Assembly: GCA_030390025.1 (NCBI GenBank) | Contig: CM059449.1 | Coordinates: 33,294,001 to 33,358,000 of the forward strand | Direction of reading: 5' to 3' | From: Squalus acanthias | Lineage: Eukaryota | DNA: 64,000 nt | Shown here: one piece after another, positions 521-52,760 of the stretch | How positions within the stretch are numbered: the first letter of the stretch is position 1 | How the letters are laid out: every line of letters starts with the position of its first letter | Translations under genes and position numbers: made by a program | Notes under the pieces: model-generated | Database searches by the model: none | Seen by the model: the letters and a program-made list of their open reading frames with translations, nothing else | Told to the model about the DNA's origin: nothing

Positions 521-2716
521 TGTTTTTAAAATATCGCATCTGTTGAATACCGTTATCGGGTCCCAGAAACTTTTCAAACAGTGCCTTTTTTATGTACATA
601 GCTGCGCTCCTACAATTCTGGCCTGTTGTGCATTCCCGATACTGGAATGGCGGATCCGAATAACTTCCCAATGCAACGTTCCAATTTATTGGATCCGCTG
701 GAGTTTCCAAGTATTCTATTTTAACAAATCTGACTCTGAAAATACCGAAAGAAAGCGGACGAAAGTGAATTCACCATTTAGAATACCATTGCCATTTCCG
801 AGTTGGAGTTAAAGTCCCTCTGTATACATAATAGATGTAATGAGAGCTGTGCACGGAATGGTCGATGCCGTGATCCGACTGTGTAATATGTTGTGGATGC
901 TTTAAGCAATGTGCTCTGTGTTATATTTGTTGTCGCTTGCAGTTTATGTGCAGGTACTTTCTGCTAACACTGCTCGTCTCTGACTGACAAAAAACGAAAC
1001 CTTGCGGCTTTAGCATCTGCCGAACTGGACAGACACCCGCGTCCCTTCAACAAAGCTGTTTCCGTTACGTGCTGCACAGTTCCGCATATTCAGTGATCCA
1101 ACCGTGAGAAGACAGCTAGAAATCCTTGAAACCTTTGCAATTTGCTCCATAACAGCAAAACAAACCATGAACAAACAAACTGCAGCGAATATGTAATGTC
1201 TAATATTCCATATCCCAGGACTTGTGCTGTGAACAAGGCACATTTCCCGTCTGCCTTCATTCCGCGGATCCACACCATGACTAGACCCCGGCAGTTTAGT
1301 AACTGCTATGGAGATCCTCTGCTATACATGTTAAAGGGCACAGTTCCATGTACCATTAATATTCATTTAACAGTATTTGCATTCAATAATCAGCACCGAA
1401 ACCTTACCAGGTAGGAAAATTATAGGTCCAGTACAAGTGCCCCAACTTTACCAGGGCAGAGACAACTGGGCTACAATTGGCGGTGGACATTGAAATCCCC
1501 ACTTAGCTTACATTCTGTGTCCGTGCTTCCCTGAGCCTTTCCTCCAACCTGCCTTCAATATGGAGCAGTACTAAATCCTCAGTTAAGGGAGAGTGGGATG
1601 TTTTGGTAGGTGGGCTCCAGCAGGAGCTTTCCTTGGTCTTGCTTGACCGAAAGCCATGAGATATTTGTGATAGATTCTTTGTGCGTGAGGAATGGCGTGG
1701 TCTGGATGAGAAAGATTTGAAACTCTCACTGGGGGACACAGGTTCAACACAAAACTGGAAGAATGTGAGATTTCATATCAGTGTTTTATGGGGTCACACC
1801 GCCCCACAGGGTGATTTCAGATCAGTGTGTTACGGCCACTTTCAAGAGTGCAGAATAGCAGTTTAAAGTAAGTCAGAAGACACAGATCTAGGTTAATGGC
1901 TTGGGAGTTGAAAACTAATATTAGGAGCAACTTTTCTCAAGGATGATGAAAGCTACGATAAATTCTTCAGTAGGAAAGCACGAATGGTAATCATTGGCGG
2001 TGTTCCCAATGCAGTTCGTATCTACTCGGAAAGTCCTGTCCACGGAGGGATGAGTTGCAATGTGCCCAATGGCTTTTTCTTGTACAGTAAATGTCACCCT
2101 ATATTTTACCACAATAAATATTTGGCACTGGTCCTCCAGGTTTCTTCAATATTAGTTTAGGAAACATCACTGAGGAAAAACCTGGTAAAATATAAAGAAA
2201 AATATTCCCCGCTCACTGAACGCTACAGGTGTATGCTGGGATATTAGGCCTAGTTAACAATCCCAGATTGAACCGTCACCATTCAACTCAAAGTCCAAGC
2301 TTCTGAAAGAGAATGAGGCCTTTGAGGAAGACATTAAAAGATGCAAAAGACAATTTATTGAATAGAATTAATTATTCTATTTTAAAATATAATAGCTGAC
2401 GTTTTAAAATGTAATCTCTTATTGTGGACAATAGAATGTTCAGATAACCGCGATTGAAAAAAAACACAAAATATGTTTGAGTGTTTGGTGGGATGTGGTT
2501 TAAAAAGATCAATCCTGGATGGATGGATGGAGGGGCGGGCGGGCGGGCGGACTTCCATATTTTAGGTGTCATTTTATCTTCTCAGGAAAGATGTATTAAT
2601 TTTAACTAAATAAATATTTCTGCTGTCAGAATATAAGTTTAGACTATTGCATAAATTGCTCAGTGAACTGGTGTTTGTAACACTTGATGTTATTTCAATA
2701 TGTTATGGTGTTTTAG

Positions 2717-2976
2717 ATTCTCACTCTTTGATGAATCACTACACACTGGACCATGGGATTTCTGATCTTCCGGACTATTGTATAATGGAGGTTGTGGATG
2801 GCTGTGAGATAAACTATTGTGACAGCAATATGTACATAACGGTTCCAAGGAAGCAGTGGATGGTGAATTCCTATTACACCAGTTACTGTGAGGAACTCAT
2901 AATTACTGCAGCCAGTTTCCACGGAATCAGAAAGGGCAACTTTCCAGAACGTTACAGCAGATGAACCTCAGTTCAA
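2717..2976 (+). pseudogene. Orphan paralogous MHC class I alpha1 exon with a 1-nt deletion
   Basis: ttttag| acceptor and A|GTAAGT donor are intact. DSHSLMNHYTLDHGISDLPDY...DGCEI...VPRKQWM aligns to 12434-12694. Length is 260 nt versus 261; restoring one base gives ...QQMNLSS matching ...QQNNQTS. No alpha2/alpha3 exon found before 8097. Confidence 0.85.
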
Positions 2977-7220: not shown

Positions 7221-7909
7221 AAGGAAGATTTAGGGTAATTTAGGAATTGGACAACTTGAGATGGTTGGAGCATTGGGTGTTTTCCTAGAATAATTCAATC
7301 CCCATTTGTAAGTCACTACATTCGGTCCTTATTTTTACTCAGTACTTTGACTTTATATTTTACAGTTTACAGTTTGGCTTTGCATCGAGGAAGCACAAAA
7401 TAAAGTCAGTTCACGTGTAAAGTATGCTTGAATTTTTTTAATAAAACATTAGCCCACTCGCCGCTGCTGTAACGACAGCCGCAGTTTGGGGCAATTTTAT
7501 CCTAAGTGGCTGGGCGGGATCCCACGGGGCGGGTGGAACCTTCCATTCCCGCTCCCGCGCAATATTACTCTCCACTGACTTCAATGGAGAGTAAAATTGG
7601 GCGCGGTGTAAAACCGGCGTTGCCCCCGATCCCGTTAGTTGTTCGGCCGGGCGGGTTAGGTTAAAATTTCCCCACGGGGTCAGGAAGGGTTTAATTGCCG
7701 TGATATGAACTTCGGTGGTTCACTGTATTGAGGTTCAAGAGGCTGAATAGTTTATGACTCGAATCTCTGCGTCAACGAAGGCGTGTCCCGCTAGATTCAG
7801 GCAATATCTTCATTGTTATCAACATAACCCCCGGAGCGCTGTTTTAAACATATTTCTAACCGCCCGCCGTGTGTTGTCCATGACCACATGGCGCAGGCCT
7901 TGGATTGTG

Positions 7910-8040
7910 AGACAGTTTCGGTGCTGCTCACGGTTCAGGGACAGGCCTGAACAATCAGTGACGTATCTTTACTGCGATTGGACGGTGAGCTCCCGCACTG
8001 CCCACTTGTGAGTGAAGCTGGGCTCGGTTCATTTAAGGCG
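7910..8040 (+). promoter_or_regulatory. MHC class I-type promoter (ISRE-like, X1/X2, Y box, TATA-like)
   Basis: AGTTTCGGTG 7914-7923 (imperfect ISRE), CCTGAACAATCAG from 7946, TGACGTA (CRE/X2) 7959-7965, ATTGG (Y box) 7977-7981, ATTTAA 8031-8036. The order matches the SXY module and the surroundings are CpG-rich. Confidence 0.65.
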
Positions 8041-8096
8041 CTCAATCTTGTTCTGTCACTGGGAGAGACGGCGGGCGGACGGACGGACGGGTCGGC

Positions 8097-8148
8097 ATGT
8101 TTCTGTCAGTTGTACTGAGTTTCTCCCGCCTACAAGCGGCCCTGTCTG
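8097..8148 (+). CDS. MHC class I-like gene exon 1 (signal peptide MFLSVVLSFSRLQAALS)
   Basis: ATG at 8097, hydrophobic leader ending A-L-S, phase-1 donor G|GTGAGT at 8148/8149; lies directly downstream of X2/Y-box motifs and joins the alpha1 exon in frame (G+AG=Glu). Confidence 0.8.
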
Positions 8149-9269
8149 GTGAGTAGCCGGTTCCCGCTGCATCATTGAATGTCTCCAGGCTCACCCTCTG
8201 AACTTAGACCTTAACCGGCAGGCCTGTCGCTCACATCAGGTGTATCACACAGGGAAACTAGACAGTGTGTGCGGAAGTGAAGCAATGAAGCGGGATTGGA
8301 ATCTCCATCCTGCTTCTCAGGCTCGCTTCTCCCTTTGCTTGGATTAGATGATGTCCATTACTGTCCGGACAGCCTGACATTACAGCTCAGTTACTATGAC
8401 AGCTTGTATGTTCTCTCTGATAAGCAGGAGGGAGACGGACAGTTTGTTCCCGCTAAGCGGCTTGCGGGTACGGAAGTGTCAGTATAACTGCGAGCCCAAT
8501 CCCGACCTGACCCCTGAGTGACCAAGAGCCCAGCGGCTAGACTCCTGCAGGAAAGCGGCTCAGTCGGTTCGGGTTCACACCTGTTTCAGTGTAACTCCAG
8601 CCGGCGGGAAGCTGCATTTTAAAAGCTTCATTCTACCTCCTGGGAACTTGGAAAACCTTTTAAAACTCCCAATAAATCGGAAAAATCATTTAAAATACAG
8701 AGGGAGTGGTTCACTTTTATCACAGGGGGAAGCGGGTTCCAGCGACCGGGAACCTCTTTTACACTTTCCGACTCGCTTTAGAATGAAGCTTTGAGGCGAT
8801 CCGTGCAGGTTCGGGTGAAGATTGAGCCCCCAGAGTTAACCTCTCTGTCTCTTTCACACTGACCTGTTGCATGTTTGCAACATTTGCTGTTTGTAGCGGA
8901 TTCCCACCATGTGCGGTCCCATTCGGGCTCATGTTGACTCTGTGAGATGGTGTAAAGAGGGCGAGAGCGGTTCGGCCGCCCGTTTTCCATCGTTCTCCCC
9001 GTTTCCCCCTTCTATTGAGTTCAACGGCAGTACACATCTGGAGAGCTGTAAAAGGAGCTGCCGACTGGCTATCGCCCGTTTTACTATCGCACAAAGTCAA
9101 GATCGAGCCCACTGACTGTTGGAATTGATCGGCGCCTGCTGCTCACAGTCTGGAGCTGTTCGGGGGAAACACCAGAGGCAGCTTTCGGCACCTGTTACAG
9201 CTCGCTGTGGAAGAAAGAGAGAAAGAAAGAAATGCATTTCTACAGCGCCTTTCACCACCTCAGGACATC

Positions 9270-9540
9270 AGGTGGAAGCCGGTTTAACAGTAACTTTGAA
9301 GAAGGAATCGGACAAATACTTAAAGGGAAAACAAAAATACAGGGCTATGGAGAAAGAACAGGTAGTGGGAATCATTGGCTTGTTCTACCAAAGAGCCGAC
9401 ACAGGCACAATGGGCCGAATGGGCTCCTTCTGTGCTGTCTCATTCCATGATTGGATGGAGTTAAAATACAGATCAGCCATGACTTAATTGAATGGCAGTA
9501 AAAGGCTCGAGGGGCTGAATGGCCTCCTCCTGTTCCTAAA
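9270..9540 (+). mobile_element. CR1 3' end fragments
   Basis: CR1 terminal motifs (GGGCCGAATGG, GAGGGGCTGAATGGCCTCCTCCTGTTCCT). Confidence 0.65.
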
Positions 9541-12433
9541 TTAATGTTAGTGATATTGGAGGTGAAATGCTTACCATATTGGTGTAACATTGCTTTGCCT
9601 GTTAACTTAATGGTGCAGCCTGTTTAAAACAAGTGGGATATTCGCTGTGTTACAACAGTGGACAATAACATGTCTTACTAATATTGCCAACAGTAATTTT
9701 AGGCAGAACATGTACAGCGGTACAGCGAGTAATAAGAGTCAATGAACAAGTGTATTTGTTGCTTGGTATGAAATTCCTCTTTTCACTATTTTAGCAGAGC
9801 CTCAATCTGTTCACAGCAGATAGATTTACACCACCTCTGAAAGGGAGGAGGGTTGAATTTTCAGTTTGTATAGCTTGTAAACTTTCTATCACCCAGCAGA
9901 AACATTGAAAGTGACCAGCCTGTGATTGGCCTTTCCTTGACCTTAACAAGGCGAGGCTGTATTTGTCAGTGAGGTTTGCCCCTGTTCTGAGAAGGTGCAA
10001 ACACAGGATTGGAGATTGCTACTGCTTTTAACAGCCAGCTCTATAATCGCTACCGATCAGGTTCAGTGGGAAATATTCTCGCCGGTGCTTTCAATTTGTG
10101 TCCCAGTCTTCCTCCAGTTTCAAGTCTTTGCCATTCACCAGTGTGGTCTTTTCTAATCCAATTCCGCCCGCAGTTCCTAATGCTGGGAGTAGAGCCAGAG
10201 ATTCCCTCCCCAGTGACGGGAGGTGATTTATTTCCCATTGGATAGAATGAGTTTCACTGAACGAGATAAGCAGAATAATGTGGGAGGGGTTCGGACATCG
10301 ACAAAACCTTCCCGTTTCGCTGTGCAGGATTTTAACTGAGCGACTCCCTGAAACATGTTCCTGTTTGCTTTACTAAGCCTTTACTTTTCTCAAAGGGTGG
10401 TTCCTGGTAAGTCAAATGACAGGAATTGTGCGGCTATATTCTTTATTGCACGACATGACCGCCATCGAGAACAACGTATTTGACCCCGGTTTAGTCCGGG
10501 TAACACTGACTGCCCCGTGTTTCGTCTGGGAGACAATGACTGCCCCGGTGTTTAGTCCGGGATACACCGACTGTCTCGGACATTGCGGATGCCCTGGGGG
10601 AGCTCCTGTGTTAGTTGAAACGGTGAGGTGACGATAGGGCCTCGTGTGGCGTTGGACGCTTAAGAAAGGTGCCGGAGAGTTACTGCAGGACTGAAGTAAT
10701 GTCCCCCAATCATAGATGGGGATTTGTGCGGTGATTCAGACCGACGTGTTGGCAACGTTGGTTGGACTCATTCCAGGAGCTTTCATCACATGACCTCCAG
10801 CCCAGTCAACCCGTATTTTGTCCCCAGCTCCAATAATATTATAATTGTGATTGTTGTGTTATTGTTATCTTTCTCTCTAGTTTCTTGCAGCGGTGTCCAG
10901 GAGATTAATATTTAATTCCTGGAGACTGCGGGATAGTTCTGGAGGGTTGGTAAACCTATGCTCCGCCCGTCAGATAGATTAAGTTGGTGGGGACAGTATA
11001 ATTTTCGTGATCCGGCTTCATTTACATGAAATGAGCGCCAAGACCTTTTGATTTAAAGGCAGCCTGCAGTCCCTTAAATGGCCGCTGCACTTTTCAAGGG
11101 TGGTTAATGGAGAGCGACTTACTGGAGCAGCAGGTTTCGTGACATTATCAGGTGTCCTCCGATTCTCTGGGCAACGGTGGAAGCGCTTGTAGGGCAAGTT
11201 AGCACCGGTATTGAGGATCTCGTCTCCTCTAATAGGTAACGATAGGCCCGGCAAAATAGTCAGCTGTAATGGCGAGAGGTGGATGAGCAAGCCAATGGCA
11301 GCAACATTGGGTATAAAGTGCATGGTACCCGAAAGCGGCTGATGGAGATCGACAGCCTGTTTTGGTCTATCGCCCAATTTTATTTTCCAATGAATTCAAT
11401 CGAATAGAAATTCAGGCGGCGGGCAAAGCTGCCTGCTGATTCGCAATCGCCCATTCCGCGCTGCCGCCCAAGACAAATTTATATTCCATTTTCCCAAGGA
11501 TCTGTCTGCATTGCAGGAAGAAACGTAATGACCTCACCAGGACTGACAAGGTCAGACTCGGCTTCACATCTCTCTTACTGTCTGCACAGCCTCGCACCGC
11601 CTGAAGTTTGCCGCTGCACTTCTAATCCTTTCCTCCCCATTCCCATGGCTCTCCTCCAATCACAACTGACCCTTCACTACATTCCAGAGTGAAATTACAA
11701 GAAGCCCATTAACAGTTCAAAATGTTCAGCAGGCAGTACAAGCATTTTAAATGGATAAAGTAGTGAAATCCCACAAAATAATAGAAGAAAAATATCTCCC
11801 AAATATTCCAAAATTTTATTTGAGACAAACTGAGGATTCCTTTAATATCTGCCTCCCGATTGGTTCCACTTTGTGGGCAGGATCAGGAACTAGTGGGAAC
11901 AATGTGGGCAGAGAGGGAAATATTACTGAGGGCCCTGAAAACGTCCTTTAACCCCAATTTGCATATATTCAAGCTGCTTTTTCCCCTCTTTTGCTCAGTA
12001 AATCTGAGGCCAATTTTAATGTCGCTACAAGCAGCGGGCTGGGAGCAGATCACTGCGCACACACCAGGGATGGATTCTGCACGGCTTAGTACCATAATTC
12101 TGGGTGCACTTCCTCACTAATTCACCAAAGAATCCCCAGGTCAGACGTGGGACTAAAATCTTAAAGTTACGATTTACAAATGAGCTGAGCTGATGTAAAT
12201 TATTTCAACCATCACATTTTTCATTTATTTCGAAAATGGGAATATTCTTGTAATTGGATAAGATTTAATATTAAGGCTCATTTTGCCTTCTCTTCAATGG
12301 TTTAACACGGGAGCGATGGCAAAATATCCAGTGTTCTCGCATTTTTCTGAATACATTATTTTGTCCCTATTTGTTTAGCAAACTGACATTTCTGATATTT
12401 GTATGGAAATGATTTTCTTTTATTATGTCCTAG

Positions 12434-12694
12434 AGTCTCACTCTCTGTTATATTACTACACCCTGAACCATGGGAGTGCTGATCTGCCGGAGTACAGTGT
12501 TATGGGGCTTTTGGATGGCTGTGAGATAGACTATTACGACAAAAATTTGAAAATAACTGTTCCAAGACAGCAATGGATGGCAGAAGCATTTGAGAAGAGT
12601 TACTGGGACGAATACACAATAACTCAAGCTGGATTCCACGGACTCATCAAGGGACAGGTTGATAGATGGATGCAGCAGAACAACCAAACATCAA
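12434..12694 (+). CDS. MHC class I-like alpha1 domain exon
   Basis: tag| acceptor, 261 nt, phase 1-1, donor A|GTGAGT. Encodes (E)SHSLLYYYT...LPEYSVMGLLDG...PRQQWM...YWD...NQTS, including the conserved N86 sequon. Confidence 0.95.
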
Positions 12695-13299
12695 GTGAGT
12701 GTATTCGTTTGAATGAATGCAGTGAACGACAGGGGTCATTTAAACTTGGGGGATTGTGTAACATGAGTAACATCAAACCGCCTGATATACACCCGCCTGA
12801 TTTTCCCTTCCATTGACTTCAACAGAAAGGAACATTAGGCGAGGTGTATAATGGGCAACTATTTGAATATCACCCATTTTACACCCTCTCTGGAATGTAA
12901 CATTAACCCCAATGAATGATGTTGGTGATAAGGGGGTGAAATTCAGTGTTGGTGGGTGTAAAATGGGCAGTAGCAGCGAGGCCACCCTTTATACATGCTG
13001 CCTGATTTTCCTTTACATTCACTTCACAGTAAAATGGGCCTTGGTCTATAACAGGCGGCTTTTCCGCTGCCACCCGTTCAGCAACCCTGCTGAAGTTGAA
13101 TTTCACTTTCAGCCAGATAAAATCCGGGCGCCTGTGATTCAGCTTTTGTTTTACACCTCGATCGCAAAAGAAAATGAGATGTGGTGGAAAACGGGCGAAA
13201 TATGGGCGCCTGTGAATCAGCTGTCGTTTTACACCTTAATCGATTTTCTGAAAATCGGACCTGATGTACTCTTTTGGTGCACACTATGAACAAATAAAG

Positions 13300-13740
13300 T
13301 GTAACTTAAAAAAACCATTAAAGGAAACCAAACAACTTAAATTTATATGTTGTTACTGGTGGTGAAGATGCACTCCAGTCCCTGTGGTGCCCACCGGTCG
13401 TGGAAAATCACGAACGTGCTGGCGGACACCGTGGGCTCCATCTCCAGGGCCACCCGGGCGCGAACGTGGCCGCGGAAGAAAGGCAGGAAGTCGGGCCGAA
13501 CGAGCCCCTCGACCGCCCGCCGCCTTGACCAGTTGATGGCCACTTTGGCCAGGTCCAGGAGCAGTCCTACGAGGAGGTCCCCAGATCTGCCCGCTCCCCT
13601 CCGCACCGGGTGACCAAAGATCAGGAGCGTGGGACTGAAGTGCAGCCTAAAATCGAGGAGCAGCTTCTTCAGATAATGGAAGAAGGGCCGCAACCTCTCA
13701 CATTCGATATATACATGGAACACGGACTCCTCCAGGCTCG
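13300..13740 (-). mobile_element. L1/Tx1-clade ORF2 C-terminal fragment
   Basis: EESVFHVYIECERLRP...LLIFG...LAKVAI...RW resembles the zf-RVT/C-terminal region of L1/Tx1 ORF2. Confidence 0.7.
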
Positions 13741-14929
13741 GAGATGGTGTAAAGTGGGCGGCCGATTCAGCATTGGTCATATTTCACCTGGTGATAACAG
13801 TTAAAAATCCGCCCCTCCCCACCACCACTAGTGTTTATTGAATGACATTTGTATTATTACATTTAATTTATGATATTTGTAATATTATATTTATTTAATT
13901 ATTTTGCTGATATTTTACATGTAACTAATCATATTATGTTTATTGGGGTAATTTTTTACTCTTCAGCCAAAAAGAAAAATGGCCAATATTGGACCGACCG
14001 CCCGTTCTAAACTTCGCTCAGATTCCCTTTCAATTGGGCGAGGTTTATAATAGGCCACTGACCCGATATTGTTCGCTTTACACTATGACCACAATTTAAA
14101 ATTAACCTCCCATTCATGATAATATTACTTTTAATGAATGATATTAGTAACACATTTATTGAATGACATTGGAAATAACACATTTATTGAATCACCTTGG
14201 CAATATTGTGTTTATTGAATTATACTGGCAATATTGAATTGAAGGATTATTATTCATATCATTGCATTTGCTCAGTGATATTGGTAAGCACATATTTGAT
14301 ATTTAATGTAGATGTGTAAGTTTGAGGTTCCAATGCCATCTTATATCCCGCAGGTGGCTTATCAGAAAAGCATAATGCACTGGCCGCAGTTTTCTATTCA
14401 TTAGGAGTAAATTTTATAGTTGGGCAATAGTGTAAAATGAGCGATATCGAAATGACTAGCCAATATACTCCCTGTCTGATTTTCCCTTCTGTTGACCTCT
14501 ATGGATATGAAATTCAGGCGGGGTGCAAAATGGGCGGACGATCAAATATCGCCCATTTTACACTCTCAGCCAAAGTCAAAATTACCCCCATAGAGTCAAG
14601 TCCATTGTAACAAGGTTGGAGGACAGGGAATGTCAGCCTATGCTGTGCAAACATAACTCAGTCCCCAATTTAAAGTCATACATTCTGGCATGTATTGTGA
14701 CAGCATTGGCAAATATTCTGGTATGTTATTTATAGTTAAGTAACAACATTGCTGGAAAATTGTGAAGGTGAGAAGTAGAGTTAGTTTATACACGGGAGTT
14801 TTCCAGAAGTATAGGCTGAAGAGTTGGGCGACAAAAAACTGAGGCAATACAGCGCCACCACTGGAGCGAGGGTGCAATTGCAACATGCTGACTTTACATC
14901 GGCAACTCCCATTTCAAATGTTGACATAT

Positions 14930-15900
14930 AGAATCATAAAATAATACAGCACAGAAAGAGGCCATTCAGCCCATCGTGCCTGTGCCGGGTCTTTGAAAGC
15001 TATCCAATTAGATCCACTCCTCTGCCCTTTCCCCAAAGCCCTGCAACGTTTCCCCTTCAAGTATTGATATCCAATTCCCTTTTGAAAGTCTCTATTGAAT
15101 CTGCTTCCAACACGCTCTCAGGTAATGCATTCCAGATCACAACAACTCACGCATACAAGAAATCCTCATATCACCTCTGGTACTTTTTCCAATTACCTTA
15201 AAGCTGTGTCCTCTGGTTACCGACCTCTCCCCATATTCACTCTATCCAACTCCTTCATGATTTTGAACATGAATTCAGAGGAATTGATAATGGGAAAAGG
15301 TTGATAAAAATGTGACAAAAGGAAGTAAGAACATAAGAACTTAAGAACATCAGAAATAGGAGCAGGAACAGTCCATTCGGCCCCTCGAGCCTGCTCTGCC
15401 ATTTAATGAGATCATGGCTGATCCGATTTTGGCCTCAACTCCACTTTCCTACCCGCTCCCTATAACCCTTGACTCCCCAGTTGCTCAAAAATTTGTCTAT
15501 CTCAGCCTTGAATATATTCAATGACTCAGCTTCCACAGCTCTCTGAGGTAAAGATTTTCAAAGATTCACGACCCTATGAGAGAAGAAATTCCTCCTCATC
15601 TCCATCTTAAATCGGCGACCCCTTATTCTGACACTGTGCCCCCTCCTTCTAGACTCCCCCACGAGGGGAAACATCCTCTCAGCATCAACCCTGTCCAACC
15701 CCCTGAAAATCTTTTATGTTACAATAAGATCACCTGATATTCTTTTAAACATCCAATGAATACAGGCCGAACTAGCTCAACCTTTCCTCATAAGACAACC
15801 CTTCCATCCCAGGAATCAACCTAGCGAACCTTCTCTGAACTGCCTCCAATGGAAGTATATCCCTCCTGAAAGAAGGGGACCAAAACTATATGCAGTAGGT
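14930..15900 (-). mobile_element. Two CR1 3' fragments
   Basis: CR1 tails at ~14930 and ~15325 followed by reverse-complement ORF2 C-terminal sequence. Confidence 0.8.
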
Positions 15901-16816
15901 TGTGTGGTCAGGTAGTACATAACATTTCTAATATAATATAGCTAGATTTATAGTTAAATACCAACATTTATTCAATTTGGGAAGCAGAGAAGTAGAATTG
16001 GTTGGAGCACCGCAGTTTCTCTGGGAAATGCAAAGCTAAGTCCGACAGTGCCACCACCGGTGGGAGGGTGTAATTAAAGCATGACCAGCCGACGGTGGCA
16101 GCTTCCTTATAAAGGTGGACATAGGAATTTATAAAGGGAATTCTTAACACAAATGTAATTGAAATATGACAACAGGAAGTATGCTTTTGTGGACAGGAAT
16201 TACACACAGATGTAAGAGTTTTAAATTTTCTACTCAATTTCCTGTTGTGTTGCATATGTGAGGTGTAATTCTAACTTTTGGTGACAGTGTAAAATGAGTG
16301 ATATTGGATCGGCCACCCATTACACACTCCACCCAATCTTCCCTTCCATTGGGGCCATGGTGAATTGACAGCCCATTTTACATCTTTGAAAGTTAATAGA
16401 AGAACAATGGGTGGAGTGTAAAACAGATGCTGATTCGCTATGAGTCCATTTCGCACTACTGGCAAAGACCAATTTCACCTCGTCTGTATTTTGCTCAATG
16501 GTCATTGAGTATAACATCAGGGACTTGATGTTGACTTACAGAAGACATTGGTTAGGACACTGTTGGGGGTTTTCATGCAGTTCTAAGCACCTAATATAGC
16601 AGGAATATTACAGCAGACAGCTGCCGTTTAACTTTGGTGTCAATTGTTCTCTTTCTGTGCTGTAAATTCTATGTCCCTGTGTGATGAACCTTGTTTTAGA
16701 TACTAAACGCCATTTCCACCTGGAAAGAGTGACTAAAAAATAACTGAAATTCTCAGATTTGGTGTGAATAGATGAGATAATTATGTAGCTTTTGATCGAT
16801 TCAATTTCTGTTCTAG

Positions 16817-17092
16817 GTACTCACTATCTTCAAGGACTGTTTGGCTGTGAGCTGAATGATGCCAATCCTAGTGTAGGGATTTTGAAGTTTGCTTATGATG
16901 GAAGATACGCATTTAGTTTTGATAAAGACAAATTGGTTTGGACTGTACATGATCCAGTAGCTCAGACCTTCAAAGTGAAATGGGATAAGGAAACAAAGAT
17001 GAACCTTTATTTCAAGAGCTTGTTAGAAAAGGACTGTGTTGATTTATGGAGGACATACTATTCACTTGGAAACGCATCACTAACCAGAAAAG
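16817..17092 (+). CDS. MHC class I-like alpha2 domain exon
   Basis: ctag| acceptor, 276 nt (typical class I exon 3 size), G|GTAAGT donor. Encodes THYLQGLFGC...FAYDG...KVKWD...LEKDCVDLWRTY with the C101-C164 pair. Confidence 0.95.
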
Positions 17093-17319
17093 GTAAGTTC
17101 AGAACAACTTGGGGGTAAATTTAAAGTTTGGCGATAGTGTAGAACTGGCGATATTGGATCAGCTTCCGTTACACACTCTCCCCATTCTCCTTTAACAGGC
17201 GGCTGATCCGATATCACTTGTTTTACATTAGTGGCAAAAGTTAAGATGACTTCATTCATTCTATTGTGAAATGTGCGACTTTTATTGAAGTTGAAAATAA
17301 CTGTCGTTCTATCATGTAG

Positions 17320-17586
17320 TTTCCCCTGAGGTCTCAGTTATTGCCAGGGCTGCTGATCGTTGGTTTCTCCACTGCATTGTGACTGGATTTTACCCGCAGT
17401 CCATCAGCGTTACCTGGTTGAAGAATGGAGAACATGCCCCCGAGACCAAATCTACTGGGTTATTACCCAATGAAGAATGGACGTATCAACTGACGACAAC
17501 CCTTGAATTTGATCCGTATGATGGGAAACAATACACCTGTCATATTGAGCACAGCAGCTTGCCGGGTGGGAAAACAGTCTCCTGGG
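17320..17586 (+). CDS. MHC class I-like alpha3 (Ig C1-set) exon
   Basis: gtag| acceptor, 267 nt, G|GTAAGG donor. Encodes (V)SPEVSV...LHCIVTGFYPQSISVTW...LLPN..TYQ...YTCHIEHSSL...W. Confidence 0.95.
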
Positions 17587-18943
17587 GTAAGGACATGAGC
17601 AGCGATACTGAACAATCCATCAATAATAGCAACAACACCCACACCTGTCTTGCTCTTTCTCTCTTTTTCTTTACACATCAGACAACACTTTGGTTATCTC
17701 TGTACTTCAGGTTGTCTGTGACTGTTCCTCATTCGTTCTCTCTCTTTTAGTCCATTTCTGTTATCTTCTGACTCTTCCATAATCTGCACCCACCCCTCCT
17801 TGTGTGCTTCTCGCACACTTGCTTTCTCTCTATATCTTTCCCATTGCTTCTTGCTGTCTATCTCCACTCTGTACCCACACCCCACACACACCGCACGGTC
17901 TCAGAATTAGATAACAAATGAATCTCTGTACACAGTCTATCTGGGTTAGAGAATGGATTAATCTGCATTCACCACCCACTCTCAGACATCAGACTCTTTA
18001 TTTGCCCGACTTGCTGTTGCTTCACTCTTTGTTTCTGCTTTTTCATTGTTGTTCCGTTTCACTGTGGTGATGGATGTGCTCGGTTTCTGAGCTGGAACTT
18101 TTGCTCTGTGCTGAGCTATTTCACTCTCAGCCTCAGTGTGTTTTTGCTTCTCTTGTGTCTTTGTTGAGGTGGGGAATGAGGTGACGGGTCACTTTGGGAT
18201 ATGAGAGGAGGAGTGGGGAAGTGTTGTGAGGAAAGGTCATTAAAATGTAGTGCAGTGGGGGGAGGGGTGATAAAATAACGCGGCCTGGCGGCAAGGGTGG
18301 GTCTGAAGCTGGGCTCCTGAGGCGGGGATGGGCCGAAGTCCTCTGGGAGCTGCAGGCAGGGAAGGTGGGGGCGGTGGGCTTTGCCCAGAAAGAAAGAATC
18401 TGCAGCAAGAATGAAGGTTGGGACAGGCGTGGCGGGTGGTGGACCCCAGGAATCAGCCTAGAAATTGCTGTTGGTGATTACCAGGGTCACCAAATGTCTC
18501 CAGGGGAACCTCCTGCTATTGGTTTAGACACAGCGGGGTAGATTTCCAACCTGCCGCCCGGGTGTAAAACCGGAGTTGCCTCCAATGGGAATGAAAAGCG
18601 GGCAGTTTGTGTGACAGGCGGCTGATCCACAGCAGAAGGCTCACACCAGAGCGGCACGGTGAAAATCTACCACAAATTGTTTAATAGATAACGGTGCTGC
18701 TCATTCAGGTCTCTCCATGGAAACGTGCCTCCCTCAGGGGAGCAGGTAGGATGATCCTTCTGATCTGGAAATGTATTTCTGGTCGGTTACTGCGCTGATC
18801 CTCTGCTGAGGGCAATTTCCAGATGCTGTGGCCCAACCTGTGCAGTACCCAGTTGTTTATAACAATCCCTTGAATTAGAAAATCGGTTCATTAAAGTCAG
18901 TTTTATAAGCTGCATATACACAGCTTCATATAATCAGATCTGT

Positions 18944-19432
18944 NNNNNNNNNNNNNNNNNNNNNNNNNNNNNNNNNNNNNNNNNNNNNNNNNNNNNNNNN
19001 NNNNNNNNNNNNNNNNNNNNNNNNNNNNNNNNNNNNNNNNNNNNNNNNNNNNNNNNNNNNNNNNNNNNNNNNNNNNNNNNNNNNNNNNNNNNNNNNNNNN
19101 NNNNNNNNNNNNNNNNNNNNNNNNNNNNNNNNNNNNNNNNNNNNNNNNNNNNNNNNNNNNNNNNNNNNNNNNNNNNNNNNNNNNNNNNNNNNNNNNNNNN
19201 NNNNNNNNNNNNNNNNNNNNNNNNNNNNNNNNNNNNNNNNNNNNNNNNNNNNNNNNNNNNNNNNNNNNNNNNNNNNNNNNNNNNNNNNNNNNNCGCTCNN
19301 NNNNNNNNNNNNNNNNNNNNNNNNNNNNNNNNNNNNNNNNNNNNNNNNNNNNNNNNNNNNNNNNNNNNNNNNNNNNNNNNNNNNNNNNNNNNNNNNNNNN
19401 NNNNNNNNNNNNNNNNNNNNNNNNNNNNNNNN
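18944..19432. other. Assembly gap (N run)
   Basis: Run of n with a 5-base island; lies in intron 4 of the MHC class I-like gene. Confidence 1.
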
Positions 19433-20449
19433 NCCCTATCTGTGTTTCTATCTCTCTATATATTTCTCTCTCGATTTCGATCTGAATATTTTGAAAATGT
19501 TGAGTGTGGTCAAGTTTCCAAAGCTGCTGCTCCAATCCAACAACATTAGGTGACAGATTGAAAATGATAGGGTTCCGCCTATTGTTGAACGATACCAGAA
19601 AGCTGCCTTTGCAGTATATTGAGAGCTCGAATTAAAGAAACGGAGTCTGTATGCAGTTACAGAATCGGACCACTGAGTGTCACTGTGGAGCATTCAGGGT
19701 TTTGGAGACAGCAGTCATGTTGCTATCGTTAAGTAAAAGAAGGTAAACATTTAACTATCTGAATTAAATGTAAACTTTTATGTAGATAATTTGCTTATTT
19801 ACAATTCTCATGAGCGGAAGTCTTGCACCTTGAGCTCCCTCTCATCACACGGAGCTGTGGGGACGGTCAGAAGCTCGATCCCCCAGCCCTGGGAGCTGCC
19901 ACAGTGGCATCATCTATTCAACTGCCATTACTTACCCCTCATATTGCCCCTTTCACCAGTCCCGCAGACACAGGCCTCTGCTAGTTTCCTACATGGCTCC
20001 CCTTACACAGCGATCCATGGGGGGTTGCAGGAGAGGGGACAGCTGGTTTTCCCTCTGCCTCGCTGGGCACCACGACCACAACCCTTTTCCATTGTCCTCC
20101 CCGCTGCACATTCCTATCGCTGGCCCAGCCCCGATCAGTCTAAAAACCATGCTTCACTCTTCACAGCCGTTACTCCTCCCCCCACCTACCCTGACACCTT
20201 TACAGCCTGACCACCTCTCGTTGACTAGAACCTGTGTTTATTCACAAAAAGTGAACTTTGTGGTTTTAAAGAAACCTGGCTCCACCTTAGTGAAATAATA
20301 CATTGTGCATTATATGGTGTGAGGATACTGTCCATAGAAAACAGCTCATCATCCTGCTTACCATGAGCAGGGCCATAGGTTTCCACTGATTATATATAAA
20401 ACTGTCAATCCGCACATATAATTATACAAAACTTGCTAATATTTTTCAG

Positions 20450-20557
20450 ATGGAAAAGTAGAGAAAGACAAGCATGTGGGGCTGATTGTCGTGTGTGTGC
20501 TGGTGTCGCTGGCTTTCGTTATAGTTTTAATCTGTATTTGGAGGAGAAAACGGAGAG
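20450..20557 (+). CDS. MHC class I-like connecting peptide/transmembrane exon
   Basis: tttttcag| acceptor, 108 nt, phase 1-1. Encodes (D)GKVEKDKHVGLIVVCVLVSLAFVIVLICIWRRKRR: hydrophobic helix plus basic stop-transfer; donor G|GTAAAT. Confidence 0.9.
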
Positions 20558-20671
20558 GTAAATCGAGAGAATATGCTGCAGGCTTGTTTGTAAAAGTATG
20601 ACACAGCGGCTTTACAGAAAATCTTTTGGCCGGCCCCAGGATTATATTTTGAATTTTAAATATCTGTTATA

Positions 20672-20957
20672 AAAAAAAAAACTTGCATTTATATCGCGCG
20701 CCTTTCACGACCTCAGGACGTCCCAAAGCGCTTTACAACCAATGAAGTGCTTTCTTTAGAAGTGTAGTCACTGTTGTAATGTAGGAAACGCGGCAGCCAA
20801 GTTGCGCACAGGGATCTTTTACATCCACCTGAGAGGGCAGATTGGGTCTCGGTTTAACGTCCCATCTAAAGATGGCACCACCGACAGGGCAGCTCTCCCT
20901 CAGCACTGCACTGGTGTGTCAGTCTAGATTTTACTGCTCAAGTCTCTGGAGTGGGAT
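20672..20957 (-). mobile_element. SacSINE1/DeuSINE-like SINE (partial)
   Basis: Minus strand reads TCCCACTCCAGAGACTTGAGC...CTGACAC.CAGTGCAGTGCTGAGGGAG...GACGTTAAACCGAG...GGATGTAAAAGATCCC...ATAAATGCAAG. Recognised from memory as the shark Deu-domain SINE. Confidence 0.65.
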
Positions 20958-21019
20958 TAAATTGGTTAATTTGTTAACTTCTGTAAGAACAACTGGAATT
21001 TTATCGAGGAAAAGTTACT

Positions 21020-21650
21020 AATGGAATTTTAAGTTTAAACAAACGAGGTACAGAACGTAACTGCCAAGAAGTAAATATGAGCCTCTATAAAACCTTAAGA
21101 CCGGAGTTAGAACACTGTGTGCAGTATAGAATTTCACGCGATAGGGGGGATATTGAGCTTTAGAGAAGCTACAAGGTGGATTCACTAGGATGCTGCCCGA
21201 TAGAAGGAAACACAAATACAAGGAAAAACTTGGAAAATGCGCATTTTTATTAGAAAAATGCATATTACGGGTGATATAATAGAAGTGTTTAAAATGATGG
21301 AAGGATGGCTCAGGATAGATAGAAGCATACTGTTTCCAGTAGTTGAGGGTCAAGAATGAAGGGTTATAGATACCAGATTAAATTTTAGAGATTTAGAACA
21401 GAGGGTAGGAGACGATTATTTTCACAGAGCGTTGTGAGGCTGTGGAATCCACTTCTAGTGATAGAGGTTGAGGCAGAAACTATGGCAACATTTAAGATTA
21501 GATTGAGAAGTTGGACAAAGGGAAAAGGGGTTTAAGGGATATGAGAACAGGGTGGGTAAATGTGATTAGTAATATTTACTGGTGTGGAGAGTAAATGCCG
21601 ATACGCACTGGTTCGGACAAAGGATCTCTTTCCATGTTGTAACTTCTACT
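21020..21650 (+). mobile_element. Old CR1 3' fragment
   Basis: Degenerate LYKTL.RP.LE.C, FTRMLP and F.QSVVRLWN motifs. Confidence 0.7.
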
Positions 21651-21716
21651 TTATTCGATATGCACGTGTCCCAAGTGTAGTGAAATTAAAATCCAGTTCT
21701 TTATTAACAAATTTAG

Positions 21717-21868
21717 GGGGTGAAATTGGGCGATAACACAAAATAGCCACTAGTGAATCGGCTGCCATTTCATTGAAGTCAATAGAAAAGCCCATGGGGT
21801 AGGTGTGAAACTGGCTGGTGATTCGCTATCGCCATTTGTCGCTACGGCCTGAGCCCAATTTCACCCCA
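21717..21868. mobile_element. Short TIR MITE, family B (representative; similar copies near 7489, 12710, 12933, 13945, 14403, 16262, 17112, 18536, 22670, 32960, 61120)
   Basis: GGGGTGAAATTGGG ... CCCAATTTCACCCC termini, internal CATTGAAGTCAAT motif and quasi-palindromic body. Confidence 0.7.
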
Positions 21869-21884
21869 TTAAGTTTTGTAACAG

Positions 21885-21913
21885 GTGGCCCACACATGAA
21901 AACTTTCCCCATG
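21885..21913 (+). CDS. Candidate 29-nt cytoplasmic micro-exon of the MHC class I-like gene
   Basis: acag|GT GGC CCA CAC ATG AAA ACT TTC CCC ATG|gtaaca. Converts phase 1 to phase 0 and puts the next exon into a Ser/Thr-rich frame. Weak polypyrimidine tract. Confidence 0.45.
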
Positions 21914-22045
21914 GTAACACCATCAGCATCAACATGAATTTATGTTTGATTGATATGTTAAGACGGAAGCATACGTGCTAATAACCTTTATTACCAATAC
22001 CATCGTATTATTACAAGCGTTCTCTCTGAACATGTTTCTTTTCAG

Positions 22046-22189
22046 AACAAGGCAGACATTTCAAATACTTCCTTAAGCAGCACCACCAACTCCTGCAATT
22101 CAAAAAAACCCAGGTTTAAGAAAGGAGGTCAGCATCACAGTCCATGGAAAGGGTCATTTCCTCTGGAACGTTTTAAAGGCGAACCTTAA
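22046..22189 (+). CDS. Terminal cytoplasmic-tail exon of the MHC class I-like gene
   Basis: Strong acceptor tgtttcttttcag|. Phase-0 frame gives NKADISNTSLSSTTNSCNSKKPRF...GEP* (stop ends 22189); phase-1 frame gives EQGRHFKYFLKQHHQLLQFKKTQV* (stop ends 22119). Confidence 0.6.
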   Translation, partial: NKADISNTSLSSTTNSCNSKKPRFKKGGQHHSPWKGSFPLERFKGEP

Positions 22190-23364
22190 CTCCTAGTGGT
22201 GAATGAAAGGGGGCTGACAGGACACAGATCCACACTCATTGTCTCAGTGACAATGCAAGTTTAATAACCTTCCTGATTCAGTATTGTAGCGAGTACTTTA
22301 TCTTCCCACAGGCCACATTCATACTGCAGCCTGAGGATCCCTGAGGGATGGTTTGGCTTAACGCCAGATGTTTTAGTGTAAATCCAGACTCAGGACCCCA
22401 CCTGGCTACCAGGTGAAGTAGAGGGAGACTGCCTCCTCCAGAATATCCCTTCGCACCAAATCTAATGTTATTATGTAAATGGTTTCCGAGTGGCATTAAG
22501 ATAAAAGGTGGAAATATAATCAGAAGATCACAAAGCAGACTGGAACTCCCAGGTGTTAAACACCTTCCGTCAGATTTCATTTCCCGGAGTGCCCCATTAA
22601 GGCAAATATTGTCCGTCCCTACTGTGGTCATTGCACCTTCATAGGGGCAGGAAAGGGTGGAGAGTCATTGGGTGTCATTTTCAGATTAGGAGATAGTGTA
22701 AAACAGGCGTCATCGGATCAGCGACCCGTTACACAACTCTCCCAACTTTCCTTCCCATTGATCTCAAGGAAAGGACAATCGGGAGAGGTGTATAACAGAT
22801 ACCCGACCCGATAACGTCCATTTTACATTAACGCCAACAATTAAAATGACCTCCATTGGGGTATAAATTTGTCTTGCGCAGTACTTCAAATCGGGAGGGA
22901 GTGCCCTGGCAGCAAAATGGGAGTGAGCCACTTGGCAACTAAATGGGAGAGAGCAACTTGGAGGCAAATTGGGCGACAGCGACTTGGCAGCCGGGCAGTC
23001 CGGAGGGCAAACAGGTCTCTCCGGTTTCATCGCCTGTGGAACTGACTGGAACCTGCACAACATTAACGGAACGATAAGGCTACCGGCCTCCAGGGGAAGG
23101 TAGTGAGAATCGACCGCTCTTTAGGCCCGCTACTCCTGTGCACTAAACTAACTGCCTCTGAGCTACCTATAAGGGGAAGAACCATGAAAAGAGAATGAAC
23201 AAGTCACTTGATTCTCTGTACTGTGCTCTGCACCTTCATCTCGGGATTGTCTAACATATGGATTTCACTCCCTAGATTACAACGGTGTTTAACCAGAACC
23301 TGAGAGGGTCAAACGCGAGTCTTGCATTGGATCCAAGAACACACTGAAATAATCATCGTGAATC

Positions 23365-28520: not shown

Positions 28521-29826
28521 TTATTTCCCTAACCTAATAATTAGAGACAAGGGATATTTAAACAGATTCTTTAACTCTTCTTTGAATTTAGTCTGGGACA
28601 CTGCATAAATAATGGTATTTGTGCAGAAACTCAAATGTTGCAGCATATATCCAGTTTGTTCCATGATACTGAAAGGAATACTGTACTGTAATCTGTGTGC
28701 AAATATTAAATAACAATAATTTACACATATATATATTGAATAAAACTTACCATCCATAACAGGATAAAACTGCTAGATTTGGTCAGCAGTAAAACGATGG
28801 ATTTCCTTCGTTTGTCCATTTCTGGCTCACTGTCGCTGCTCCGGAGACCCCTCCTGATTCTACTTGTCAGTAGAATTTGCCTGATGATCAGACCATTGAA
28901 TATCAGAATGAAAAGAAAATGATTTAAAGGCATTAAAACTATGTCAAGCCATAAGAATGTGACCCATACAGGTAGAGTATAGAGGTTTGATTTTTTTTAA
29001 TCGTGTTATGGAATGTGGGCGTCGCAGGCAAGGCCAGCATTTATTGCCCATCCCTAATTGCCCTGGAGAAGGTGGTGTTGAGACGCATTCTTGAATCGCT
29101 ACGATCCGTGTGGTGAAGGAACTCCCACAGTGCTGTTACGGAGGGAGTTCCAGGATTTTGACCCAGCGACGATGAAGGATCGGAGATATACTTCTAAGTC
29201 AGGATGGTGAGTGACTTGGAGGGGAACGTAGAGGTGGTGGTGTTCCCACCCGCCTGCTGTCCTTGTCCTTCTAGGTGGAAGAGGTCGCGGGTTTGGGAGG
29301 TGCTGTCGAAGAAGCCTTAGCGAGTTGCTGCAGTGCATCTTATAAATGGTACACACTGCAGCCACGGTACGCCGGTGGTGGAGGGAGTGAATATTTAAGG
29401 TGGTTCACAGAACCACGGTATATTGTCAATTTTTGCTCGTGATTGTAAGCTAAAGTACATTAGGAAATTTTCCAAAATGCATAGCCCCCATATCGTTGCT
29501 ACAACCTCTGCCGCAGTTTTTTCGGTGTAATATTGGGTTCTTATTCTTTGGCAACAAATGGCGACAAATCGATCAAAGGTGAAAGCGACAGTTAACCAGA
29601 CAGCACATTCAGACGAAGAAAAAATCAGGAAGAAATTCAGACTGCAGACCGGAGTGTACTTCACGATTGATTTCGAGAAACAACTTGCTTTCATCTCATA
29701 CAGGACCCCGCCAAATATCAGGAACAGTAAGTAGTTCGTCTGCTGCCATGGCCACCAGATAAATAGTGATGCATTTGGAGAGGCCACACTTTCCACGGGA
29801 TATAATCACAATTGTCACCAAGTTGG
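28521..29826 (-). pseudogene. GPR139/GPR142-like GPCR exon 2, disrupted
   Basis: Acceptor cttgcag|CC AAC; NLVTIVIISRGKCGLSKCIT..., VWLTVAFTFDRFVAICC, RRKSIVLLL, NTIIYAVSQTKFKEEL*. Frameshifts near 29710 and 28735 and a retroelement insertion at ~28994-29400. Confidence 0.9.
28994..29400 (-). mobile_element. Non-LTR retrotransposon 3' fragment inserted in the GPCR pseudogene
   Basis: Splits PWFCEP|KSNLY. Encodes an ORF2 C-terminus (AAVCTIYKMHCSN...SFIVAGSKSWNSL), with an AATAAA-containing 3' UTR and a short A tail. Confidence 0.8.
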
Positions 29827-30689
29827 CTGCAAGTGCGAGAATGGATAAATAAATCACGATTATGGACATCAAAAGCAATCCGATCAAAAAAAAGTGTAAT
29901 CATTAATGCTGATTTTCCCTTCACTCAAATCATTCACTCTCTTTGCCACCTAGACGTGGGAATCCTGAGGATGCCGAACTATTTATCCAACCACGCCACA
30001 TCCTTTATTGCCTGTGTAGCCTCAAAGGAAAATACTGGCTCCAACATTGCGATCGGTGGCGTAGCTCGGAGTACATACTTACCTTGTGGTAGGCCCAGAA
30101 CGGAAACTTGCTTTCGGCGCAGCAGAGCTGTGCGCAGTGTATGACATCACAAAGGGCAGGTGAGCATAAGGGAAGACACGCCCACAAAAGGTGCAAATAC
30201 TAAGCCACGCCCACATAAACTGCTTTCTGCCTCTTCCATTGAAATTACATCTTAAAAACTTTTAGAAACTTTTCTTTTACTTAAAATGTCACTTGGACTT
30301 GTTTCGTTTATCAGCATTTTGCTGTATTTCTTCATCCAAACTCACAATTTAGTAGTCGCTATTTATACAGCTTCCTGTTCTGATACTCAGTAAAGATCTA
30401 ACACTGGTATAAGTAATGTTGTTGAACTTCAGATAGAGATTCCCAGCCATATATTCAATGTTAACTTTCAGGCTTAAAATATATTATTCAGACCTCATTT
30501 AGACTGTGAATAGATAAATCAATGTTCTTGTTATCGATGCATTATATTGCTTGTTATGTTGTTCATGTTTTAGCTGAAAGGACAGAATTGTCACTGAAAT
30601 CTGATAGATGTTCACTTTATTTCAATTTCATATTCACTTTCCAATTAATTAAAATTAAACTCGACCGACAATATATACACACATATATC

Positions 30690-36670: not shown

Positions 36671-36984
36671 AATGTCATCACTACTATGGGAATAATCGAA
36701 TTGTCTTAAAGAAATTTCATGATCATGTACGAACGTATGACGAAAATTTTTTCTTCAATCCTTCCTCTATCAACGGGCAAAATCATTGCAAAATATCCCT
36801 GCTCAGTAGCAGTGAATATGACTTGCCTCAATCTGTTTGTTCAAATGAATGTAACTAACGCTAATCATTATGTAATGCTCATGTGTCACTTGAGGTTTCT
36901 CTCAGGTATAAATAAGAACTTATTTTGAAAGCAGAAGTTCTGCGAGTCCACAACACTAACAGACAACGTCGCTTCTCTCCGAAT

Positions 36985-37054
36985 ATGGGACAGCCGGTGA
37001 TCATACAGATAGAGAACATTTACTATCCTATTCTTGCAATAGTTGGTCTTCCTG
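36985..37054 (+). pseudogene. Orphan GPR139-like exon 1 (MGQPVIIQIENIYYPILAIVGLP) with promoter
   Basis: 70 nt, donor G|GTAAGC, TATAAAT at 36907-36913. Flanks ~36730-37220 align in reverse complement to ~52265-52760. No + strand exon 2 found downstream in the window. Confidence 0.8.
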
Positions 37055-38263
37055 GTAAGCCGCTTATCATCAGTTAATGCTCATTTTTAACAGTGCTTCA
37101 CTGTGTCACTGTTCCTGCTGTCGGTGTAATGATATTATTTGTTTGCTTTGATGTGTTTTATTTGAAGACAATAATTACCGGCATCAAAAAAATCACTCAA
37201 AATGGCTTCAAGTTTCTGTCATATTGTTAATGTACCAACCGGAGTGGAAGCTCTTTACTCTGACTATTTAAATTTATCAATTTAGTGAAGAACCCTTGGC
37301 CTTGACAGACAGTCTTGCAGTTCTGTATCTGGTACAAGTATTAGTATCGGATCGAGTAGCCATACCAACAATTCTTAAAAGGATTCACGGGGGCTGCTCA
37401 AGAAAAGGCAAAGGAGTTTTTAAATATATATTTGTGAATCCAGGAGAAATATAAGAGATCCGCCCGCACACACAAAAACACTCTGGCGCAATATTGGCGT
37501 ATTGTCGCCTCACCGGGATTGATTCCCGCCCGTTGCCAGATCAGCGCCGGCGCTGATTGATTCCCCGCGCTTCCCAACCGGGAGCAGCTCCGGGCGCCCT
37601 TCTGGCGCATTCAGCTGGCCAGCAGCGTGTGAACAATGCTGAAAGCCGAGCCACAGGCGCTGAAATTGATCTTCCTCAGCAGCGCGAGACGGAGTTGGAG
37701 CGAATGGGTCGCTCATTTTACACCCAGTCTGATGTCCGTTTACATTGAGGTCAATGGAAAGGGAAATCGGGCGCATTGTAAAGCAGACTGCCTGTGAGCT
37801 ATGAGCTCATTTCAGGCGACTGGCGAAGACCAATTTTACCCCTGAATCTGGCATGTCTTACGTGGAGAACACATTTTGGGTGCAACTCGAATTTTCCGGT
37901 GCATTTATACTATAACTATAGACTATAGTGTAGATTATGGTCTTTACCACCTGAACATTTTGAATTACTTTGGTGGAGCGCAGAGCGGTGCAGATGAAGT
38001 CAATGGAAATGTAATTTGTGCAAAATGGTCCGCCAATTCGCTATCGCCAGTTTTATACCACCATCGAAGACCAATTTACGTCCATGGTCATAATTTTCTG
38101 ACTAGGGACTGGAGCAACGAATTTTACACTGCAACTTACTATGGAAATCCGTGGGTGTATGTGTTGGTGCCAGGCGAGGTCATTGATCGCGGCAACTGCT
38201 CAGTAATTGCCTTTATAGTGAAACCCGAAGCGCTTGATTAATTCTGAAACTGTGCGTTATATT

Positions 38264-50423: not shown

Positions 50424-50426
50424 AAG

Positions 50427-52433: not shown

Positions 52434-52503
52434 CAGGAACACCAATCACTGCAAGAATAGGGTAATAAATGCTTTCTATCTGTATGATTACTGGCTGTCC
52501 CAT
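52434..52503 (-). CDS. GPR139/GPR142-like GPCR exon 1 (MGQPVIIQIESIYYPILAVIGVP)
   Basis: ATG at 52503, 70 nt, phase-1 donor G|GTAAGA. Joins 42783 in frame (G+CT=Ala) to give 327 aa. TATAAAT lies ~75 bp upstream. Confidence 0.85.
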
Positions 52504-52760
52504 TTTCGGAGAGAAGCGACCTTGTCTTTTCGTGTTATGGACCCGCAGATCTTCTGTTTTCAAAACAAGGTCGTATTTATACCTGAGAGAAACCTCAGGT
52601 GACACAAGACCATTACATAATGATTGACATTAGCTCCAGTCATTTGAACAAACAGATTAAGACAAATTGGGTTGACTCCTATTGACCAGGGACACCTTGC
52701 AATGATATTGCCCAGTGAAAGTGTAAGGAGGCCAGGATAATAATCTCATCATTCGTTCCA
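52504..52760 (-). promoter_or_regulatory. Proximal promoter of the intact GPCR
   Basis: TATAAAT at 52581-52575, AATCATTATGTAATG and TGTTTGT blocks, all conserved with 36730-36984. Confidence 0.6.

Follow-up and report, generated by a model that had tools for sequence, protein, structure and literature searches.

A UGA-lineage MHC class I gene from a multicopy array of Squalus acanthias and its probable lipid-binding product

The window analysed here, 64,000 nucleotides of the Squalus acanthias genome (GenBank assembly GCA_030390025.1, contig CM059449.1, positions 33,294,001 to 33,358,000, forward strand), contains a major histocompatibility complex (MHC) class I gene that a preliminary description had singled out for its hydrophobic groove. 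Judged by its sequence it is a real gene, orthologous to the named elasmobranch nonclassical lineage UGA. It is one of about 16 tandem copies of a UGA heavy-chain gene, and its product quite likely binds lipids and displays them to T cells in the style of CD1. The idea of a lipid ligand, though probably correct, was already anticipated by the named lineage and its solved structure. Not found in print, within the journals covered, were the 16-locus array, the classes of cytoplasmic tails encoded within it and a sister gene of UGA.

Orthology to UGA and structure of the window gene

Among entries of the Protein Data Bank (PDB), the alpha1 and alpha2 domains find their best match in 9CH4, with E values of 8e-43 and 1e-44 (next matches, 1e-12 and 1e-14) and gap-free identities of 72% and 76%, respectively. 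This entry, released 2026-03-18, carries the title "Crystal structure of shark nonclassical MHC CLASS I, UGA". Its alpha1 and alpha2 domains agree with the nurse shark UGA row in the PMC10751288 supplement, which prints UGA of nurse shark, skate and chimaera; the alpha1 domain of entry 8GM8 agrees with the nurse shark UFA row of the same source. Orthologues include 14 proteins of sharks, skates and sawfish at 70-87% alpha2 identity. MR1 is the second-best group of sequence matches, far below UGA.

In a tree of alpha1-alpha2 sequences (38 rows), a single clade (97/97) united 13 shark or ray proteins with 16 copies from this genome. The sister gene (see below) joined this clade on a long branch (100/99), and eight further class I genes present in this genome fell outside it. 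Some UBA- and UCA-type labels in the tree were given by likeness to printed rows of the PMC10751288 supplement, and for the UDA and UEA lineages the comparison drew on the alignment in that supplement and on the text of the paper. The trees contained no labelled CD1 sequence; in a wide tree, whose rows were unlabelled, the outside partner of UGA plus sister gene was unsupported (0.13). A separate contig (C812) carries UGA exons together with UBA-like genes, a possible sign of linkage to the MHC.

The preliminary description had proposed a nonclassical lineage, either a described one or a new one. Its nonclassical part is upheld: the comparison with class I lineages that it called for separates the gene from the UAA- and UBA-like genes of this genome, and the clustering with UAA that it had named as contrary evidence is absent. 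The lineage is a described one, UGA; a new lineage is ruled out by the 9CH4 match and the UGA rows of the supplement. It is highly improbable that the gene encodes a divergent peptide presenter of the classical type. Five of the eight peptide-terminus anchors are kept, in keeping with such a role, but the other marks of a class Ia gene were not found: the gene belongs to a clade separate from that of the UAA-like genes, in which Y7, Y59, R84, K146, W147, Y159, W167 and Y171 are all retained; the groove lacks diversification, its ratio of nonsynonymous to synonymous substitution rates (dN/dS) among paralogues being 0.47 with an interval spanning 1; and 9CH4 is itself titled nonclassical.

The exons of the gene are listed here with two further features of the window:

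8097..8148, + strand: exon 1, signal peptide; open frame, joined to exon 2 in contigs of two of four runs
12434..12694, + strand: exon 2, alpha1 domain; 62 of 86 residues as in 9CH4 (hand count), spliced in contigs
16817..17092, + strand: exon 3, alpha2 domain containing C101 and C164; 69 of 91 residues as in 9CH4 (hand count), PF00129 above cut-off
17320..17586, + strand: exon 4, alpha3 C1-set domain; PF07654 above cut-off
20450..20557, + strand: exon 5, connecting peptide, transmembrane (TM) helix and basic stop-transfer residues; frame and contig
23276..23292, + strand: exon 6, last coding exon, D-Y-N-G-V-stop, a YxxPhi-type C-terminus; acceptor scan and spliced contigs
22046..22189, + strand: last exon of the preliminary description, in reality within intron 5; out of frame with exon 5, skipped by contigs
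2716..2961, + strand: degenerate, frameshifted UGA-type alpha1 exon upstream; about 53% to UGA alpha1

As previously claimed, the exons from leader to TM have intact splice sites and join in frame, exons 1-5 showing AG/GT ends, phase-1 introns and a single open frame. The contigs come from sequencing runs without an RNA record (X1, X3 and X4 among them) that originate from other individuals or species; the runs are treated as transcripts because their contigs show spliced GT-AG joints. The leader-alpha1 joint occurs in two of the four runs and the alpha1-alpha2 and alpha2-alpha3 joints each in all four, while one 817-nucleotide contig covers both the alpha3 and the TM exon. The end of the gene had been misplaced. 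The exon at 22046-22189 is in the wrong frame, with an early stop after the TM splice so that the stop at 22189 is never used; contigs skip it, and no joint to it occurs among the 15 listed of 123. Scanning for phase-1 acceptors located a DYNGV-stop at 23276, and the joint from 20557 to 23276 (GT..AG) is present in all four runs, from two studies. The resulting precursor has 326 amino acids and the C-terminus RRKRRDYNGV; residues N84 and N173 of the mature chain lie in sequons. Within 7601-8096, upstream of the leader, CRE-like, CCAAT-like and TTTAA words occur as putative elements (pattern matches only), and short patterns for kappaB and ISRE gave no match.

Six coding bases are private to the window copy. 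One private change is indel-like, turning PNEDG into PNEEW where other copies read (P/H)N(E/H)DG; in the supplement alignment of PMC10751288, human CD1 likewise has W at the G-to-W position. Over 17 variable alpha3 sites the contigs fit other copies with 0 mismatches (X1, locus 38.36; X3, locus 32.75; X4, loci 33.62, 33.78 and C2252, loci on the contig of the window being named by position in Mb), and the window copy differs from the X4 contig at 3 of the 17. A spliced transcript is thus at hand for the UGA family, through the contig joints, but not for the window copy, whose private alleles are absent from the contigs. Since the runs, as noted, originate from other individuals or species, they neither show nor exclude expression of the window copy.

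The groove and its probable ligand

Groove numbering agrees with the HLA-A2/UGA alignment in the PMC10751288 supplement. The residues named in the preliminary description all proved correctly placed: Y7, Y59, K146, W147 and Y171 are retained, Q84, F143, L159 and L167 are changed, and Y9, Y63, F70, L73, I74, W81, L95, F99, L114, F116, M152 and F156 occupy the positions given. The window copy further has A123 in place of Y123, and a glycine at position 97. G69, F70, I74, G76, Q77, G97, F99, L114, Y155, F156 and L159 are the same in 13 of 13 orthologues, nearly all of which also retain Y7, Y59, Y171, K146 and W147. Over 12 sequences, 21 of 40 groove positions and 44 of 137 other positions are invariant. 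Averaged over 29 inward positions, hydropathy is +0.47, which places the window gene 31st among 183 class I domains; the 19 domains with all eight anchors range from -0.80 to +0.17, all below the window gene.

Section 2.1 of a 2025 review, PMC12562908, reports CD1d-like lipids as ligands of UGA and UFA, citing a personal communication based on crystals and mass spectrometry. UFA is termed CD1-like, from unpublished data, in PMC10751288. UGA orthology together with this second-hand report of lipid binding supports the non-standard, lipid-type ligand previously proposed. In such a scheme the heavy chain would pair with beta2-microglobulin (beta2m), class I heavy chain and beta2m being a textbook pair, and glycines 69, 76 and 97, with their aliphatic and aromatic walls, would give room for acyl chains. 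In CD1b, c and d a tyrosine motif in the tail directs endosomal routing; the YxxPhi tail of UGA may similarly route the protein via endosomes for lipid exchange, and copies without the tyrosine would travel differently.

Several observations weigh against a lipid-binding, CD1-like product of this copy. MR1 and classical chains, not CD1, rank after 9CH4 in sequence searches; no CD1 appears among the best 60 matches listed (alpha2 and a further sequence search), and the CD1-type Pfam model PF16497 scores 23.1 bits on orthologue P0003, against a cut-off of 35. By keeping five of the eight peptide anchors the window copy departs from CD1 as printed in the supplement of PMC10751288. The hydrophobic groove of the preliminary description is borne out by mean hydropathy, which exceeds that of every eight-anchor domain, but hardly by a crude count of hydrophobic residues, which stands at 0.70 against 0.67 in five UAA/UBA-like genes of the same genome. 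Structure prediction of orthologue P0002 (11 sequences) reached a pLDDT of 61, and this model was too poor to yield a pocket measure; in fold searches with it, drawn on for entry titles only, Z scores were tied between 9CH4 (15.1 and 14.7) and chicken CD1 (14.5-14.6), at an rmsd of 8-9. The report of lipid binding in PMC12562908 is itself a personal communication, and a primary paper on UFA or UGA lipids was not found in the literature, most subscription journals lying outside coverage. Finally, at positions 12547, 17477, 17478 and 17535, where the window copy has private bases, every covering run has the common allele, and the window copy may be silent or contain assembly errors.

It is unlikely, though conceivable, that the ligand is a lipopeptide or small hydrophobic metabolite, as in chicken YF1 or MR1, instead of a two-chain membrane lipid. 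The nearly always kept Y7, Y59, Y171, K146 and W147 could hold a peptide or a head group, MR1 chains are the next-best matches, and chicken YF1*7.1 presents N-myristoylated peptides (PMC12212280, abstract). However, PMC12562908 likens the lipids to those of CD1d, the gene resembles MR1 far less than 9CH4, and the wide tree offers no supported outside partner (see above). That the lipid is structural only, the protein serving not T cells but as a transporter, a stress ligand or an NK-receptor ligand like ZAG, EPCR and FcRn, appears quite improbable. Strong conservation and scant groove variation would fit a fixed partner, no search turned up T-cell data, and a YxxPhi tail also suits cargo recycling; against this stand the linkage to other class I genes on C812 and what seems to be a birth-and-death expansion typical of immune ligands. 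On balance UGA probably works like CD1, whether or not it is orthologous to CD1, a question that PMC10751288 calls hard to assess.

The UGA array and its cytoplasmic tails

On the contig of the window (C26), 16 matches to the alpha1 exon, at 84-100% identity, are spread over 5.6 Mb (32.75-38.37 Mb) in both orientations, and 7 further matches lie on unplaced contigs; for alpha2 there are 15 on C26 and 4 unplaced. Fifteen other C26 loci and 5 unplaced loci were read with their flanks. Of the 16 C26 loci, 8 combine all six exons with canonical sites and an open frame; the state of each locus is as follows:

Window, 33.62, 33.78, 34.49, 34.69, 35.62, 36.34, 38.36: intact
33.23: exons 2-6 intact, putative leader 23 kb away
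36.53: 5' part missing from the fetched stretch, which contains a run of N
32.75: broken, without TM exon
33.94: broken, without alpha3
35.05: broken, TM acceptor lost
35.91: broken, frameshift
36.29: broken, stops
38.02: broken, without alpha2

Nearest-neighbour copies are 97-99% identical over 14-29 kb, and some of them may be haplotype duplicates; the copy groups, being 6-10% apart (over about 15-20 kb), cannot all be alleles. Among 11 C26 copies whose exons 2-4 are full-length, pooled dN/dS is 0.33 (95% bootstrap interval 0.22-0.49), from pairwise counts that are not independent. The value for the groove, 0.47 (0.19-1.77), gives no surplus of replacement changes, and that for alpha3 is 0.26. 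Groove variants among the copies include Q77P, F143R and L167V. The degenerate alpha1 relic at 2716-2961, which precedes the alpha1 exon by about 10 kb, recurs beside most copies and is therefore part of the duplicated unit. Exon relationships are mixed: locus 34.49 (L006) resembles C2252 (L016) in alpha1 and locus 35.05 (L008) in alpha3 and TM, a pattern suggestive of gene conversion or exon shuffling within the array.

Multiple copies are also found elsewhere, with at least 10 UGA proteins on one contig of the skate Rhinoraja, none labelled isoform, and at least 3 UGA proteins less than 90% identical in the sawshark Pristiophorus; several galeomorph sharks have one or two UGA loci in the clusters read, as lower bounds. 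PMC12562908 describes UGA as single- or low-copy, a picture that the array contradicts. The 16-locus array with 8 intact copies was not found in print, although it may be described in the subscription journals, most of which lay outside coverage.

A sizeable minority of the probability goes to the possibility that the lineage is as proposed but the window copy a young, decaying duplicate in an array made up in good part of pseudogenes or uncollapsed haplotypes. At least 6 of the 16 C26 loci are visibly broken, neighbours are nearly identical, and the private alleles are missing from the contigs. Yet the frame and splice sites of the window copy are intact, the groups are too far apart for alleles, dN/dS is below 1, the contigs fit three copy types without mismatch at the alpha3 sites, and the private tryptophan is shared with human CD1 (see above).

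The tails of the array copies fall into three classes, one of them tyrosine-less. At 19 loci both last exons are present. Eight of these end in DYNGV or DYNFV, four extend 20 residues beyond DYNVV, six have a common short deletion in the TM exon and lack the tyrosine in either frame, and one has a stop within the TM segment. The deletion is unlikely to be a sequencing error because it is common to five C26 loci. A YxxPhi motif follows the TM segment in 7 of the 13 database orthologues listed (YNAV, YNVI and YQTI, for example). The X1 contig joins an alpha3 exon of class-C type to an undeleted TM exon; being a mosaic or an assembly chimera, it is no demonstration that a tyrosine-less tail is expressed. 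Locus 32.75 (L001/L021), without TM exon and with W147C, would read in frame from alpha3 to the last exon if the two were spliced, with a secreted form ending in YNGV as the predicted product.

By analogy with CD1a versus CD1b-d, sorting signals may be diverging on these duplicated lipid presenters. More speculatively, some sharks and skates may have expanded UGA independently into large arrays, the copies in this genome being split by a terminal YxxPhi motif, an internal one in an extended tail or the lack of the tyrosine, with possibly a secreted form besides, and the sister gene representing a third, unnamed lipid-type lineage. If true, this would repeat the division of labour of mammalian CD1a-e, with lipid sampling across compartments.

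Sister gene, neighbourhood and comparison with known systems

The sister gene is single-copy and lies 2 Mb from the window, at C26:30699749-30710390 (L040:250-507, 8538-8810; L060:619-888). Its domains are each 41-52% identical to UGA, its best PDB match is 9CH4 and the next MR1, and orthologues with 71-87% alpha1 identity occur in eight shark and skate species. The groove is more hydrophobic than that of UGA (F7, H59 and C99; hydropathy +1.04 to +1.37), and tyrosine is absent from the annotated tails among those listed. The gene lies outside the query lineages of the PMC10751288 supplement, whose chimaera "UGA" row its alpha3 resembles by eye. In five species the contigs that carry it equal those of UGA in length, so that the two are probably linked. 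It possibly represents an unnamed lineage.

Exons of rhodopsin-family receptors lie in the window at 41888-42784 (- strand), 28530-29848 (- strand), 36928-37071 and 52237-52560, one of them open and several degenerate. A skate gene model (P0010) fuses UGA to a rhodopsin-family receptor, so this neighbourhood is shared with skates. Two near-identical LINEs, which we take from their motifs to be of CR1/L2 type, lie nested in opposite orientation at 45209-51228. Elsewhere in the assembly, contig C2098 (L077, L078) has alpha2 and alpha3 exons that nearly match the Squalus acanthias UCA rows of the PMC10751288 supplement, and a second UCA-like copy (L080, L081) is frameshifted. The 9.7-kb contig C2379 (L085:508-777) carries a class I alpha3 exon resembling by eye the UDA rows of that supplement.

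UGA and UFA together bear the claim that lipid presentation of CD1 type dates back as far as classical MHC. The window gene alone is one more UGA member; the array, the tail classes and the sister gene matter more. The array offers natural variants, in tail class and in groove, for asking whether endosomal routing and lipid choice have diversified as in the CD1 isoforms.

Nurse shark UGA (9CH4) is the closest known system, with gap-free alignment, a nearly identical groove (differences at 24, 63, 67, 73, 80, 84 and 123) and orthologues in a single clade. It differs in its description as single- or low-copy, as against the 16 loci on one contig arm and 7 unplaced alpha1 matches found here, where the tails are of three classes and many copies are broken. 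UFA (8GM8) is the second-best alpha1 match and is also called CD1-like in PMC10751288 and PMC12562908, but it is a different lineage (E 1e-12 over 62 alpha1 residues; no alpha2 among the best 60 matches listed). Searches of the present genome gave no clear UFA orthologue, a negative of little weight. MR1 and chicken YF1 share a nonclassical groove for small or acylated ligands and provide the next-best matches, whereas their scores are well under that of 9CH4 and no grouping of UGA with outside class I is supported. With CD1 (human CD1a-e, chicken) UGA shares a conserved hydrophobic groove and G97, the latter from the human CD1 row in the PMC10751288 supplement. It also shares a tyrosine-based tail motif of putative function, the YNGV of the window being spliced in four of four runs. 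CD1a has no tyrosine motif, so that tails differ between CD1 duplicates too. Unlike CD1, UGA retains five of the peptide anchors, falls short of the PF16497 cut-off and appears to be sited among MHC class I genes.

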